Notes: generated by a model from the sequence alone, not told the origin. A stretch of DNA of 64,000 nucleotides from Faecousia sp. (GCA_045612705.1 JAZKZN010000028.1:1287-65286), one strand, 5' to 3'. Shown: positions 49,813 to 54,981, numbered from the stretch's first letter. A program made the numbers and translations.

Positions 49813-49917
49813 TTATCCTTTGAGCCGCACAGAACAAGTGCGGCTCAAAGTTGCGTTTTGATCAAGAAAGTTTACGGTCTGTTCACACCCTTCCAGTATT
49901 TTTCAAAGGGGGTGTTG

Positions 49918-49955
49918 TTGACAAGACAATTACAATGTATTACAATATGGTTACA
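49918..49955 (+). promoter_or_regulatory. ftsE promoter with WalR-like direct repeat
   Basis: TTGACA-N17-TACAAT; minus-strand TGTAAC-N5-TGTAAT at 49939-49955. Confidence 0.55.
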
Positions 49956-49977: not shown

Positions 49978-50658
49978 ATGATTGAGTTTACCGATGTAGA
50001 AAAATCTTATTCAGTCGGCACCCACGCCCTGCGTGGCGTTTCCATGCAGATCGAAGATGGCGAGTTTGCCTTTTTGGTAGGCCCTTCCGGTTCCGGAAAG
50101 TCTACGATTATTAAGTTGATCACCGGCGAGCTGAAGCCCACCGGCGGTACGGTTCATGTAAACGGCTACTCTTTGGAGCGGATCCGCAAGCGGGAGATCC
50201 CTTACCTTCGCCGCACCATCGGCGTTGTTTTCCAGGATTTCCGGCTGATTGATACCAAGACGGTTTATGAAAATGTGGCCTTTGCTATGCGGGCCATCGG
50301 CGCACGGGAACGGGAGATCCGGGAGCGCGTGCCCTACATTTTGCAGCTGGTCGGCCTTGAAAACAAGAGCCGCCGTCACCCTACGGAGCTGTCCGGCGGC
50401 GAACAGCAGCGGCTGGCTATTGCCAGAGCGCTGGTAAACAATCCGTCTACGATTATTGCCGACGAGCCTACGGGCAACCTTGACCCTGCCAGGTCCCTGG
50501 AGATTATGAATCTGCTGCAGGAGATCAATAACCTTGGCACCACGATGCTGGTGGTCACCCACGAGCGGGATCTGGTGGAGCGTTTTGGCAAGCGAGTCAT
50601 CGCCATCGACGAAGGTTTGGTGGTCCATGACGGAATGGATGGGTATTACAAGCTATGA
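49978..50658 (+). CDS. ftsE: Cell division ATP-binding protein FtsE
   Basis: GPSGSGKST, IGVVFQDFRL, LSGGEQQR, ADEPTGNLDP. Confidence 0.95.
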   Translation: MIEFTDVEKSYSVGTHALRGVSMQIEDGEFAFLVGPSGSGKSTIIKLITGELKPTGGTVHVNGYSLERIRKREIPYLRRTIGVVFQDFRLIDTKTVYENVAFAMRAIGAREREIRERVPYILQLVGLENKSRRHPTELSGGEQQRLAIARALVNNPSTIIADEPTGNLDPARSLEIMNLLQEINNLGTTMLVVTHERDLVERFGKRVIAIDEGLVVHDGMDGYYKL

Positions 50659-51542
50659 AAATAACAAACCTGGGATATTTGATGAAAGAGGGCGTCCGCG
50701 GAATCTTCCTCCACGGCTTTATGTCCTTCGCCGCTGTGATCGTCACGGTGGCCTGCCTGCTGATGGTGGGCAGCTTCTCCAGCCTGGTGTACAATGTAAG
50801 CATTATGGTGGAGGATTTGAATAAGACCAATGAGGTGATGGCCTACGTGGATAGCAACCTGTCCGACGCGGAGGCTAGAAGTATCGGTACGAAGATCAAT
50901 CAAATTGAAAATGTGTACAAAGCCGAGTTTAAGTCCCGGGAGCAGGCACTTGAGGAGTTCGTGGCAGACCATGCTGACGACCCTGCGTTCAAAGGTCTGG
51001 TTCCTTCCGATCTCCGTCACCGCTATGTGGTGGTGCTGGAGGATAATGCCATGATGGCGGAAACCGTGGCGCAGCTGGAGACCATCCCCGGTGTGGTGAA
51101 GGTCAATGCTGCTTTTGAACTGGCAGAAGGCTTTGTCACCTTGCAGAGCATTTTGCGCATTGCCTCCATCGCCGTGATCGGCGTGCTGCTGATCGTGAGC
51201 CTTTTGATCATTTCCAATACGGTCAAACTGGCAATGTACGATCGCAAGGATGAGATTGCCATTATGAAAATGGTGGGTGCAACCAACGGCTTTATCCGCC
51301 TGCCCTTTGTGGTGGAAGGCTTTCTGCTGGGTATGTTGGGCGCAACGGCTGCATTCTTCCTGGAATGGGGTATGTACAACGGGCTGGTGAACCGCCTTGC
51401 AGCGGTAGACACGCTGAAGCTGTTCAGCTTTGTGCCTTTTACAGAGCTGCTGGTGCCTATGGTGGTCACCTTTGCTGCCGCAGGCTTGTTCGTGGGTATT
51501 GTTGGCAGCTGGACTTCTATCCGGAAGTTTATGAACGTATAA
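50655..51542 (+). CDS. ftsX: Cell division permease FtsX
   Basis: ISNTVKL, EIAIMKMVGAT, PFVVEG. Confidence 0.95.
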   Translation: MKITNLGYLMKEGVRGIFLHGFMSFAAVIVTVACLLMVGSFSSLVYNVSIMVEDLNKTNEVMAYVDSNLSDAEARSIGTKINQIENVYKAEFKSREQALEEFVADHADDPAFKGLVPSDLRHRYVVVLEDNAMMAETVAQLETIPGVVKVNAAFELAEGFVTLQSILRIASIAVIGVLLIVSLLIISNTVKLAMYDRKDEIAIMKMVGATNGFIRLPFVVEGFLLGMLGATAAFFLEWGMYNGLVNRLAAVDTLKLFSFVPFTELLVPMVVTFAAAGLFVGIVGSWTSIRKFMNV

Positions 51543-51605
51543 TTTTATCAGGCAAGATTCCGGGGCCGCTTGGGTGTTTCGGTTTTGAGCGGCATAGGAG
51601 GATAT

Positions 51606-52865
51606 ATGAAACAGAGAAAATTATGGGCCAGCATTATCGCCGGTTTGCTGGCGGCATTGATGATCCTGGGCATCATCGCCAGCGTGATCCCTGTCAACGC
51701 CAGCGATGACAGATCATCTGAAGAGATTAAACAGGAGATCGACAAGCTGAAAGAAGAGCAAGAGAAAAACCAGGCGGAGATCGAAAAACTGGAAGGCCAG
51801 CTCTCTGACAATATGGACGAGATGGAGAAGATCGTGGCCCAAAAGAATGTGATCGACCAGCAGGTTTTTCTGCTGCATCAGCAGATTCAGAATATCAACG
51901 ATCAGATCACTGCTTACAGTAATCTGATTGCGGACAAGCAGGCTGAACTGGACGAAGCGGTTGCCCACTGGCAGGAGCTGAGTGATAAATATAAAGAGCG
52001 AATTCGGGCTATGGAGGAGGACGGCAAGCTGTCCTACTGGTCGGTGCTCTTTAAGGCTAACAGCTTCTCTGACCTGTTGGATCGGCTGAATATGATCGAG
52101 GAGATCGCGGCTTCCGACCAGCGTCGTCTGGCGGAGCTGAATGAAGCCGCCGCTGTGGTGGAGGAGGCCAAAGGCGCTCTGGAGACAGAGAAGGCCCAGT
52201 TAGAGCTGAGCAAAAAAGATCTGGAGGAGGCTTCCGCGGAGTTAGCAGTCGCCAGCGCTGAGGCAGATGCCCTGTTGAAAGAACTCATTGCCATCGGCGC
52301 TGAGTTCCAGGCGCTGATTGATGAGGCGGAGCTGAAAGAGAGCGAGACGGCTGGCAAACTGGATGACCTGGAGGCCGAGTTTGACGAGGCCAAGGAGAGA
52401 GAGTATCAGGAGTGGCTGGATTCCCAGCGTCCTACATACAACACCGGCTACAGCAAGATCGTTAACGGTGTGGAATGGCTTCTGCCTATGGCATATACCC
52501 ATTTTTCCAGCCCCTTTGGTTATCGCTGGCATCCCATTCACGGTGATTGGCGATTCCACTACGGCGTAGACTTGTCCGCCCCCCAGGGTACGCCTATTGT
52601 CGCCGCCCGTAGCGGCGTTGTCACCGCGGCGACCTATGAAGCAGGCGGCGCAGGCTGGTATGTGAACATCGACCATCGGGACGGCTATGCTACCCGTTAT
52701 ATGCACATGACCCACTTTATTGTCTCCTACGGTCAGTATGTGCAGGCCGGTGAAGTGATTGGCTATTGCGGCTCTACCGGCGCATCCACCGGCCCGCACC
52801 TTCACTATGGTGTGTATTTGAACGGTGTGGCGGTGAATCCTGCTGACTATATCATCGTATACTAA
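51606..52865 (+). CDS. Coiled-coil M23 peptidase (EnvC-like FtsEX partner)
   Basis: Signal/TM segment, long coiled coil, HYGVD and HLH zinc motifs. Confidence 0.9.
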   Translation: MKQRKLWASIIAGLLAALMILGIIASVIPVNASDDRSSEEIKQEIDKLKEEQEKNQAEIEKLEGQLSDNMDEMEKIVAQKNVIDQQVFLLHQQIQNINDQITAYSNLIADKQAELDEAVAHWQELSDKYKERIRAMEEDGKLSYWSVLFKANSFSDLLDRLNMIEEIAASDQRRLAELNEAAAVVEEAKGALETEKAQLELSKKDLEEASAELAVASAEADALLKELIAIGAEFQALIDEAELKESETAGKLDDLEAEFDEAKEREYQEWLDSQRPTYNTGYSKIVNGVEWLLPMAYTHFSSPFGYRWHPIHGDWRFHYGVDLSAPQGTPIVAARSGVVTAATYEAGGAGWYVNIDHRDGYATRYMHMTHFIVSYGQYVQAGEVIGYCGSTGASTGPHLHYGVYLNGVAVNPADYIIVY

Positions 52866-52912
52866 ACGGGCAGGGGAACGCGTTGCATAAAATCTTTAAG
52901 GTGAGTGAAACT

Positions 52913-53650
52913 ATGAACCAAGTCAATAAGTGGCAGCGGGTCTCCCGGATTTTGAAGACCGGTGCCACTTACCTGCTGGTGGCATTGCTGGCATCTTCTG
53001 TGACACTGGCTGTGTTGCTTCAGGCGCAAAACCAAAAGCAAAAGCAACTGATGGAACTTGTAGACCGGCAGCTGGAAAACCATGCTAACGTGGAGCAGGT
53101 CCAGGATGAAACAGCCAGGATGATGGCGGAGCTGATGGCCAGCAACAGTGATCTGCAGGAACTTTTGAGCGAAGCGGAATCCAGAGAAGTTATGTTAACT
53201 GAAAAGATCAATGAGCTGAATGCCGCCTACAATGAGGTTCGGGCAAAGGAGACCCAGAGATGGGTGCTGCCCATACAGTACATTGTGTGCACCAGCTTCT
53301 ATGGCAGTCGGGAGAACCCTACCGTCGGCGCAACCAGCTTCCACTATGGCGTGGACCTGGCAGCGGATGAGGGAACGCCCGTTGTGGCCAGCCGCAGCGG
53401 AACAATCAAAGCTACGGAATATGAAGCCGACGGTGCAGGCTACTATGTGGTCATTGACCATCTGGACGGCTACACTTCCCGATACTTGCACTTAAGCGGA
53501 GATATTGTTGAACCCGGCCAGTTTGTATTTGCCGGCCAGATCATCGGTTATTGCGGCTCCACCGGCGTGTCTACCGGCGCGCATCTGCATTTTTGCATCT
53601 ACAAAGACGGCGAACCCCAAGACCCTGCCGATTATATCGATTTGTATTAA
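52913..53650 (+). CDS. Membrane-anchored M23 peptidase, apparent CtpA(N)-EnvC(C) chimera
   Basis: Intact HYGVD and HLH; N-terminus resembles downstream CtpA, remainder resembles the upstream M23 protein. Confidence 0.85.
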   Translation: MNQVNKWQRVSRILKTGATYLLVALLASSVTLAVLLQAQNQKQKQLMELVDRQLENHANVEQVQDETARMMAELMASNSDLQELLSEAESREVMLTEKINELNAAYNEVRAKETQRWVLPIQYIVCTSFYGSRENPTVGATSFHYGVDLAADEGTPVVASRSGTIKATEYEADGAGYYVVIDHLDGYTSRYLHLSGDIVEPGQFVFAGQIIGYCGSTGVSTGAHLHFCIYKDGEPQDPADYIDLY

Positions 53651-53712
53651 CATTGTCCCACAGTCCGATCTCGGGCTGTGGGAACTTTCCATATCATAGA
53701 GGTGAAGGATTT

Positions 53713-54885
53713 ATGAGGATATTTCCCAAATGGCTACGATTTTTAGGAAAAAGTCTTTCTTATCTGCTGGTGGCCGCGCTGGCATCCGCCCTCACCCTGG
53801 CGATGCTGCCTGACACGGACTACAAACTCCGGGAACTGGAAGAAGTGATTGCAGAGAAGTTCATCGGCCAGGAAAATGTGGAGCAGATACGCGACGCGGC
53901 GGCGAGCGCTATGGTGGACGCCCTGGGAGACCAATGGAGCTATTATGTTTCCGCTGAGGAATATGCTGCCTACACGGAAAATAAGAACAATAGCTATGTA
54001 GGCATCGGCGTCACAGTGGCGCAGTTGCCGGACGGCTCCGGCTTTGACATTCAGCAGGTGGACCCCGGCGGATCCGCCAAGGAAGCCGGCATCCTGCCCG
54101 GGGATATCATCATTGCGGTGGAAGATACACCGGCATCGGAACTGGATTTGAACGGAATCAGCAATATGATCCGGGGCGAGGTGAATACCCGGGTGACCAT
54201 TACGGTGCTCCGGGACGGAGAGAAGATACCCTTCATTTTGCAGCGCCGCACCATCAAAGTAGTGGTGGCCTCCGGCCAGATGCTGCCCGGTGACATCGGC
54301 CTGGTGCAGATCACAAACTTCCACAGCGGCTGCGCAAAAGAGGCGATTGCACTGATCGACCAGCTGCAAGAGGCGGGTGCAAAGGCGCTGATCCTGGATG
54401 TGCGAAACAATCCCGGCGGTTATGTCCATGAAATGGTGGGACTGCTGGATTATCTGTTGCCGGAAGGCGTTTTGTTTCGGGAAATGAACTATGAGGGCAA
54501 GGAGGGGAAGCGGGTCTCTGATGCCGATTGCCTGAAATTGCCGATGGCCGTGCTGGTCAATGGCAACAGCTACTCCGCCGCGGAGTTCTTTGCCGCCTGC
54601 CTGCGGGAATACGATTGGGCAACGGTGGCTGGTGAGCAGACCACAGGTAAGGGCTATTATCAGGAGGCTGTGCGCCTGTCAGACGGTTCGGCAGTCAATT
54701 TGTCCACCGGCAAATACTTTACCCCCAATGGCGTCAGCCTGACAGAGGCGGGTGGCATCACGCCGGATGTGGTGATCCCTGTGGATGAGGATACTGCGGC
54801 GATGATCTATGGAAAGCTTCTGCCGGCTGAGGAAGACCCCCAAATCCGGGCAGCGATGGAGATTCTTGCGGAAAAGCTGGGTTAA
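53713..54885 (+). CDS. ctpA: S41 family C-terminal processing protease with PDZ domain
   Basis: GIGV PDZ loop, LDVRNNPGG, SYSAAE, TTGKG, GITPDV. Confidence 0.9.
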   Translation: MRIFPKWLRFLGKSLSYLLVAALASALTLAMLPDTDYKLRELEEVIAEKFIGQENVEQIRDAAASAMVDALGDQWSYYVSAEEYAAYTENKNNSYVGIGVTVAQLPDGSGFDIQQVDPGGSAKEAGILPGDIIIAVEDTPASELDLNGISNMIRGEVNTRVTITVLRDGEKIPFILQRRTIKVVVASGQMLPGDIGLVQITNFHSGCAKEAIALIDQLQEAGAKALILDVRNNPGGYVHEMVGLLDYLLPEGVLFREMNYEGKEGKRVSDADCLKLPMAVLVNGNSYSAAEFFAACLREYDWATVAGEQTTGKGYYQEAVRLSDGSAVNLSTGKYFTPNGVSLTEAGGITPDVVIPVDEDTAAMIYGKLLPAEEDPQIRAAMEILAEKLG

Positions 54886-54910
54886 AATCCCGGAAAAGGT
54901 GGAAAAAATC

Positions 54911-54939
54911 TTGACTTGAGGTCATTTTTTCTCTATAAT
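54911..54939 (+). promoter_or_regulatory. sigmaA promoter of greA-lysS
   Basis: TTGACT-N17-TATAAT. Confidence 0.7.
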
Positions 54940-54981
54940 GTTTGAAGCTATGGAATGTTTTAAGTAAGGAAGGGTTTATTT

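Follow-up and report, generated by a model that had tools for sequence, protein, structure and literature searches.

In Staphylococcus aureus, tandem duplications with short junctions yield the gene order sigH, nusG′-′sigH, nusG, in which both parents remain intact, and the chimera uses the translation start of the downstream gene (PMC3486894). A second closely related system is EnvC of Escherichia coli, a periplasmic protein that is held by FtsX and whose LytM domain is catalytically dead and activates amidases. FtsX binds EnvC at residues 114-127 and 142-160 near the tip of a hairpin, residues 222-278 form an autoinhibitory restraining arm, and a construct with only this arm and the LytM domain (222-419) stays inhibited, because FtsEX can no longer act on it (PMC7668044). 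Here, a stretch of 64,000 nucleotides from a metagenome-assembled genome of a gut Faecousia (Oscillospiraceae; GCA_045612705.1 JAZKZN010000028.1:1287-65286), referred to as the window and numbered from its first letter, was analysed with a focus on the gene at 52913..53650, which lies between a long EnvC-like M23 gene and ctpA and combines the 5′ part of the latter with the 3′ part of the former. The best explanation as a whole, to which we assign a probability of roughly 0.8, is an origin of this chimera by tandem duplication in one step, with a membrane-tethered hydrolase as the product.

The topology is that of the S. aureus chimeras nusG′-′sigH and rplK′-′sigH, namely an intact upstream parent, a chimera composed of the 5′ part of the downstream parent and the 3′ part of the upstream parent, and an intact downstream parent (PMC3486894); in Faecousia all three genes lie on one strand, and the same order was found in about 20 loci. 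The S. aureus chimeras are reversible laboratory variants that are few generations old and preserve their junction repeats, whereas the Faecousia chimera is fixed, old (saturated synonymous divergence, dS), present throughout a subclade and under purifying selection, and the DNA of its junction is unrecognisable. A previous reading of this stretch from its sequence alone (the sequence-only reading) had described the birth of a chimeric gene, of which the chimeric origin stands, while the event proved to be ancient and clade-wide and not private to this genome. A literature search returned no description of the chimeric origin of the gene, and public records name the protein only "peptidoglycan DD-metalloendopeptidase family protein". 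The genes, the homologous segments and the modules of the chimera, including its transmembrane (TM) helix, are located as follows.

51606..52865, + strand: parent 1, the long EnvC-like M23 protein P0002 of 419 residues (Pfam PF24568 and PF01551).
52260..52862, + strand: segment of parent 1 (residues ~219-419) homologous to the 3′ part of the chimera.
52913..53650, + strand, including the stop codon: the chimeric gene, encoding P0001 of 245 residues.
52913..53104, + strand: CtpA-derived module (residues 1 to ~64) with a Lys/Arg-rich tail, the TM helix, the first extracytoplasmic helix and the start of the second.
52967-53020, + strand: TM helix (residues ~19-36) within the CtpA-derived module.
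53105..53257, + strand: EnvC-derived helix (residues ~65-115), equivalent to the last ~50 residues of helix II of the long protein.
53258..53647, + strand: M23 (LytM-type) metallopeptidase domain (residues 116-245) with H144-x3-D148, H193 and H224-x-H226.
53713..54885, + strand: parent 2, ctpA, encoding the S41 C-terminal processing protease P0003 of 390 residues.
53713..53895, + strand: segment of ctpA (residues 1 to ~61) homologous to the 5′ part of the chimera.

The C-terminal match of the chimera to the upstream M23 protein, claimed in the sequence-only reading, was borne out. Residues 41-245 of P0001 align pairwise with residues 193-419 of P0002 at 41% identity (E = 2e-59), and the profile-profile comparison of the short and long families gave a probability of 100% and E = 9e-90, with P0001 46-245 corresponding to P0002 184-419. 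The N-terminal match to CtpA, claimed in the same place, is marginal as a single pairwise alignment (36-38% identity over 64-76 residues, E = 0.007-0.07) and was confirmed by wider searches. With P0001 as query, a six-frame search of the whole assembly detected the N-terminus of CtpA (E = 3.1e-6). A profile of short-family N-termini, made from 111 family members without the protein of the window and its three close relatives, had the CtpA N-terminus as its top match among the 14,954 six-frame open reading frames of the genome (E = 4.4e-7) and did not hit the signal peptide of the long protein (E = 0.84). Conversely, a profile of CtpA residues 1-70, for which only 35 Faecousia genomes devoid of the short gene were used, retrieved genome-wide CtpA at E = 3e-20 and then residues ~6-71 of P0001 at E = 4.9e-8, with the next best hit at E = 1.6; after widening to 110 columns, the alignments of the CtpA profile to divergent short proteins always ended at CtpA residues 59-69. 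Comparison of the short family and the CtpA family with hhalign yielded a probability of 93.5% and E = 2.3e-7 over the tail and the TM helix.

TM helices are compositionally alike, and together with the modest pairwise E-values of the window's own proteins this could be taken to mean that the N-terminal resemblance is that of a generic or convergent signal-anchor and that the gene is a truncated M23 paralogue. Such a reading retains next to no probability and is effectively refuted: the genome-wide profiles single out CtpA and the short protein only (next E = 0.15-1.6) and leave the signal peptide of the long protein aside, the match starts at Met1 and continues for ~30 residues past the TM helix into the specific motif K-L-x-E-L-x3-I-x2-K-F-x-G-Q, and it attains E = 2e-15 in the related locus L020. 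The motif also gives the direction of the transfer. In the form S-K-L-x-E-L-x3-I-x3-F-x-G-x-x-D it is conserved in every Faecousia CtpA with or without a short gene in the same genome, and a subset of the short forms keeps it after the TM helix as L-T-E-L-x3-D-W-K-F-x-G-Q-A-S-x-E; its presence in the CtpA of all Faecousia, chimera-less genomes included, argues for a transfer from CtpA to the chimera.

The position of the junction was derived from L020, which carries the earliest-branching short form. Residues 19-79 of its short protein align with residues 1-61 of its own CtpA, ungapped and from the initiator Met, at 43% identity and 72% positives (E = 2e-15), and residues 73-279 align with residues 184-418 of its own long neighbour at 51% identity (E = 7e-86). 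Because these two homology blocks abut, with an overlap of seven residues, the ancestral junction is placed where CtpA codon ~55-61 would have been joined to EnvC-like codon ~184-190. Homology to the long protein starts at residue ~184 (nt 52155) in less derived relatives and at ~219 in the window, and the protein of the window is, relative to L020, devoid of about three heptads directly after the junction; these heptads appear to have been lost later, in the lineage of the window. The present junction at ~53090-53125 (residues ~60-71) agrees with the interval of 53095-53130 proposed earlier.

At the DNA level no trace of the duplication has survived. A dot-plot and a repeat search of the three-gene region (51500-54950), a dot-plot of which had been suggested as a check, revealed no long repeat and no residual duplicated DNA, and only short motif-level matches were detected, for example a 16-mer coding for GSTG. 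DNA identities between the chimera and ctpA that had been put forward at the outset are real (23 of 27 bases in the TM-coding stretch; AAYGTGGAGCAG) and are of no use as independent evidence, because they follow from amino-acid identity and codon bias. Since no junction is preserved, the duplication event rests on protein homology and gene order. The absence of junction repeats is expected for an old event and is thus not an argument against an origin by duplication.

Relatives of P0001 are found by the hundreds in public data, with ~250-265 residues and 40-55% identity, and share a common architecture in which a tail with W-K motifs is followed by a TM helix, a coiled-coil helix and the M23 domain. 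In 115 of the best 120 database clusters the frame is intact at short-form length (225-300 residues). A full-length short form is present in 10 of 151 Faecousia species representatives (E ≤1e-99; long forms follow from 1.6e-68, a clear gap) and was not found in any of the 395 genomes sampled from 133 further genera of the family. Among 63 Faecousia/Oscillospiraceae loci, the interval between ftsEX and ctpA holds a long and a short gene in ~20 cases, two long genes in 23 and a long gene only in 21; the loci of the first kind show the order ftsE-ftsX-long-short-ctpA-greA-lysS. The order ftsE-ftsX-M23-ctpA reaches as far as Desulfovirgula and is for this reason regarded as the older state. Many tails of the short family (P0007, P0012, P0017, P0049, P0055 and P0059) contain two to five copies of a W-(K/Q/R) unit, e.g. 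P-D-W-K-K-L, and the copy number differs between species, as if it had grown by small tandem duplications; the tail of the window's protein has one (K-W-Q-R).

Maximum-likelihood trees were used to relate both halves of the chimera to their parents. In the M23 tree, built on the region common to short and long proteins, all 21 short forms constitute one clade (SH-aLRT 100), which is nested in a group of 45 rows (support 91) that also comprises all 20 long neighbours and four single-long loci; the M23 domain thus groups with its own neighbour and not with distant homologues. A tree of the catalytic part of CtpA, which has no residues in common with the chimera, united these genomes in one clade as well (19 chimera-bearing genomes and the same four loci, support 98). 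The short-family N-terminal profile scored ~31 bits against CtpA N-termini of this clade, ~9 against those of other Faecousia and ~0 against outgroups, a clade specificity whose p-value is indicative only, as kin are not independent. From the M23 tree, the CtpA tree and these profile scores it follows that both halves coalesce with neighbouring parents of the same lineage. The order envC, chimera, ctpA as the product of a duplication, a central point of the sequence-only reading, is hence supported by independent profile searches, by the M23 and CtpA trees and by the synteny of 63 loci.

The short N-terminus is most similar to the CtpA of its own clade, a pattern which recurrent exchange would also produce. 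An older short M23 gene might therefore have received its N-terminus later from ctpA by gene conversion or recombination, or the two N-termini might have been kept alike by ongoing conversion or co-evolution. We consider this highly improbable. Within the clade, the identity to the CtpA of the same genome (0.340) does not exceed that to the CtpA of other genomes (0.334; permutation p 0.28), and there is consequently no sign of ongoing conversion or tight co-evolution; moreover, the clade yielded no short form in which the N-terminus is of another kind.

Tandem duplicates of full length occur frequently in the genus (23 of 63 loci), namely in the following loci.

L008-L012, L016, L042, L043, L051-L056, L058-L063, L065, L067, L083: ctpA preceded by a tandem pair of full-length EnvC-like M23 genes.

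This frequency lends some credit to an origin in two steps, in which the complete envC-like gene was duplicated first and the second copy later lost its 5′ half and gained the 5′ end of ctpA by a second partial duplication or a deletion. The approximately unbiased (AU) test does not reject a single clade of the short forms and the second copy (B2) of the long-long genomes (delta lnL 27.3, p-AU 0.109, shared helix and M23 region), and another Faecousia genome, G005, provides an example of a shortened M23 paralogue that arose at this place independently. In the free tree, however, the two copies of the long-long genomes (B1 and B2) form separate clades that are nearest to each other (support 82), while the short clade falls with its own long neighbours (support 91), and the long-long and the chimera-bearing genomes belong to different CtpA clades (support 98). 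As the two long-long copy clades are each other's closest, the long-long genomes are indicated to have arisen by a separate full-gene duplication in another Faecousia lineage. An origin in two steps would also demand at least two rearrangements and still need a join that copies the 5′ end of ctpA, whereas both breakpoints and the gene order follow from one duplication; the two-step origin is accordingly regarded as improbable.

The short paralogue of G005 (L098:1520-2224, - strand; G005:C33), which belongs to another Faecousia species, is a different protein of 234 residues, encoded in the slot that separates ctpA from the long M23 gene. With a cleavable-type signal peptide and a low-complexity linker rich in Ala, Gln and Glu, and with neither a coiled coil nor a CtpA-like N-terminus, it represents an independent shortening. 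With full duplicates, the chimera and an independent short form all occurring in it, the envC-ctpA slot appears to be a hotspot of paralogue birth. Four ruminant-gut Oscillospiraceae metagenome-assembled genomes (L041, L045, L046 and L049) are nested in the chimera clade in both the M23 and the CtpA trees and possess the long gene only; most likely they have lost the chimera secondarily.

According to the preferred one-step origin, a segment that began in the middle of the envC-like gene (codon ~184-190), spanned the intergenic region and ended early in ctpA (codon ~55-61) would have been tandemly duplicated in the ancestor of one Faecousia subclade. Such a duplication would leave both parents intact, and its join would create the in-frame gene ctpA′(1 to ~58)::′envC(~187-419), which would use the ribosome-binding region and the start codon of ctpA; in the window, the ATG of the chimera is preceded by AAGGTGAG. 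Vertical inheritance of the chimera and its evolution under purifying selection would have followed, with a later loss of the ~three heptads beside the junction in the lineage of the window.

Selection on the chimera had been suggested from its intact frame and was examined with eight ortholog pairs. The ratio of nonsynonymous to synonymous divergence (dN/dS) amounted to 0.08-0.18 for the short gene, 0.03-0.13 for the long gene and 0.08-0.18 for ctpA; with dS at ~1 or higher and near saturation these ratios are rough, and all of them are far below 1. Pooled by region, the short gene showed values of 0.20 in the CtpA-derived part, 0.10 in the helix and 0.105 in the M23 domain. The short gene evolves faster than its long parent, with branch lengths about fourfold longer for the pair of the window and L018 and with a higher dN in most pairs, as might be expected of a decaying, functionless by-product of the duplication. 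Decay is nevertheless scarcely credible and effectively refuted, given a dN/dS of 0.08-0.18 in 8/8 pairs and of at most 0.2 in every region, the intact frame in the 115 of the best 120 clusters and in the 10 species representatives, the invariant catalytic residues, and the one nested lineage which seems to have lost the gene and not to have kept a wreck of it. On account of the low dN/dS and the invariant catalytic residues the chimera is considered functional and constrained by purifying selection, though evolving ~2-4 times faster than the long parent, and the earlier suggestion of selection is thereby upheld.

Pfam searches detected a PcsB-type coiled-coil domain and Peptidase_M23 in P0002, PDZ and Peptidase_S41 in P0003, and solely Peptidase_M23 (PF01551) in P0001, with 103.5 bits against a cut-off of 28.7 over residues 143-238. 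The structural model of the chimera comprises helices at 3-55 and 60-114 followed by the M23 domain, and the homologue of helix 60-114 in the long protein is the end of helix II. Comparison of this model with M23 structures by Foldseek gave E ~3e-11 and an rmsd of ~2 Å; the fold search returned M23 domains only and was uninformative on the helices. The zinc ligands and the reading frame, noted as intact at the outset, are so, and in the family H144, D148, H193 and H224 are invariant, with H226 found in at least 90% of 52 members. We take these residues to be equivalent to LytM H210, D214, H260, H291 and H293. The chimera is a bona fide M23 family member. In NCBIfam and among structures, its catalytic domain is matched best by the MepM/ShyA-type M23 DD-endopeptidases, with which it has an intact active site in common; the scores stay far below the equivalog cut-offs (90 bits vs 341), and the N-terminal parts are built differently.

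Lys and Arg residues precede the hydrophobic helix of the chimera, and a cleavage site of the type seen in the long protein is absent, for which reason the chimera is probably a bitopic membrane protein with an N-in/C-out signal-anchor. It is not an S41 protease, as it represents only residues 1 to ~61 of CtpA and contains neither the PDZ nor the S41 catalytic domain. Also missing is the EnvC/PcsB-type two-helix hairpin, as helix I (38-138) and the tip (139-153) of the long protein, the latter within its PF24568 match (126-187), have been lost. Since the hairpin is absent, the chimera is not an EnvC/PcsB-type FtsX client. Of the earlier remark that most of the FtsX-binding coiled coil is lacking, the loss of helix I and of the FtsX-binding tip is what stands, by structure mapping.

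The long parent provides the link to EnvC. The AlphaFold2 model of P0002 consists of helix I (38-138), the tip (139-153), helix II (154-273) and the M23 domain (283-419), preceded in the sequence by a cleavable-type signal peptide ending in V-N-A. In structural alignments P0002 is collinear with EnvC of E. coli and Vibrio cholerae in the FtsEX-EnvC structures (8tzl_E, Z 21.2; 6tpi_A, Z 18.1) and is so at the sequence level too, its LytM domain (284-417) corresponding to EnvC 291-418. When the coiled coil alone was compared with the PDB, chance coiled-coil matches were obtained and EnvC was not recovered, so the mapping relies on the full-length sequence alignment and the structural alignment. 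By this mapping the chimera keeps approximately the portion of EnvC that the construct 222-419 covers (PMC7668044). In contrast to the dead LytM domain of EnvC, both Faecousia M23 proteins keep all catalytic residues, and while EnvC is periplasmic and held by FtsX, the chimera is anchored by a foreign TM helix. The residues retained by P0002 (H318, D322, H367, H398 and H400) are invariant in 51 relatives. FtsEX in this clade probably drives an endopeptidase directly and not an amidase activator.

For the chimera these comparisons suggest an active, membrane-tethered peptidoglycan endopeptidase, in which the CtpA-type anchor and first helix run into one long helix that bears the M23 domain outside the membrane. 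Its helix 65-115 would lie at the position of the restraining arm of E. coli EnvC, and with helix I and the hairpin tip gone, through which EnvC binds FtsX, the enzyme most likely works without being driven mechanically by FtsEX. The retained helix, proteolysis or both probably gate its activity.

That a C-terminal processing protease may be functionally linked to a LytM-type protein has a precedent in SpoIVFA, as the CtpA homologue CtpB cuts this substrate in the linker between its TM and LytM parts (PMC3808539). SpoIVFA and SpoIIQ resemble the chimera in that a linker connects a TM helix to an extracytoplasmic domain of the LytM type (PMC3808539), and differ from it in locus and origin. As identities for P0001, SpoIIQ and SpoIVFA were rejected on score (NCBIfam SpoIIQ, 52.5 bits against a cut-off of 250). 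A further system is CtpA-LbcA of Pseudomonas aeruginosa, in which a C-terminal processing protease is reported to control cell-wall hydrolases by degradation (PMC8764530, PMC11021448). This precedent would be consistent with the conserved adjacency of M23 gene and ctpA out to Desulfovirgula. It differs in being Gram-negative, periplasmic and adaptor-dependent, and no chimera that shares the N-terminus of the protease is known from it.

The first two helices of the crystallised CtpB chain belong to an N-terminal four-helix bundle for dimerisation (PMC3808539). CtpA aligns from residue ~38 with this chain from its residue 12, and the chimera carries the first helix of this dimerisation type and the start of the second. 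One could speculate that the inherited anchor and helices dock the hydrolase onto CtpA, which would hold, trim or release the M23 domain and make the enzyme proteolytically gated and FtsEX-independent; we regard this as rather unlikely. If true, a dedicated protease-hydrolase pair would have been born in one mutational step. Complex prediction for full-length CtpA and chimera with family alignments scored 0.04 against a mark of 0.32, which speaks neither for nor against binding.

Several points weigh against the one-step origin and the membrane-tethered hydrolase as its product. There is no duplication trace at the DNA level, with dS at ~1 or higher, no long repeats and no junction repeats. 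The AU test does not reject a grouping that unites the short clade and the second copies found in long-long genomes, the trees come from 'quick' searches, and the stem leading to the short clade is long (0.55). The correspondence of the helix of the chimera to the restraining arm is a collinear mapping and not a residue-level structural alignment, and enzymatic activity, membrane topology and independence from FtsEX are inferred.

The remaining features of the locus concern its transcription. The genes ftsE, ftsX, the long EnvC-like M23 gene, the chimera and ctpA follow each other on the + strand, and greA and lysS complete the series of + strand genes after ctpA. The upstream features are listed here.

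49918..49946, + strand: promoter-like site TTGACA-17-TACAAT upstream of ftsE, the likely start of a five-gene operon.
49978..50658, + strand: ftsE, ABC ATPase, conserved as the gene that opens the locus (63 related loci).
50655..51542, + strand: ftsX, the membrane partner of the coiled-coil hydrolase.

A terminator-like hairpin (49818-49850) is located upstream of the promoter-like site of ftsE, and the next strong promoter-like site (54911-54939) lies ahead of greA; between the two promoter-like sites no terminator-like site with a convincing stem was found. With strong promoter-like sites only before ftsE and greA and no convincing terminator in between, the five genes look like one operon. 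In the 62-nt spacer from the stop codon of the chimera to the start of ctpA, a 7-bp inverted repeat (CCCACAG ... CTGTGGG, 53657-53682) was observed that is not followed by a T-run; it might be an element of RNA processing or stability rather than a terminator.

The mechanism of gene formation at a duplication junction is already known, and what sets the present case apart is that the product is old, fixed and selected. Chimeras from duplication joins are well documented in eukaryotes and in laboratory bacteria, and fixed natural bacterial cases are seldom described together with flanking parents, a dating within one genus and measurable long-term purifying selection. The finding raises the question of how an active M23 domain is controlled that keeps a putative autoinhibitory helix without the FtsX handle, and whether the conserved adjacency of M23 gene and ctpA reflects control of the hydrolase by the protease. 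The chimera would be a natural counterpart of the engineered EnvC 222-419 construct, and its proposed origin implies that a single rearrangement, by supplying the signal-anchor of a neighbouring gene, can redirect half of an FtsEX-controlled hydrolase to the membrane.

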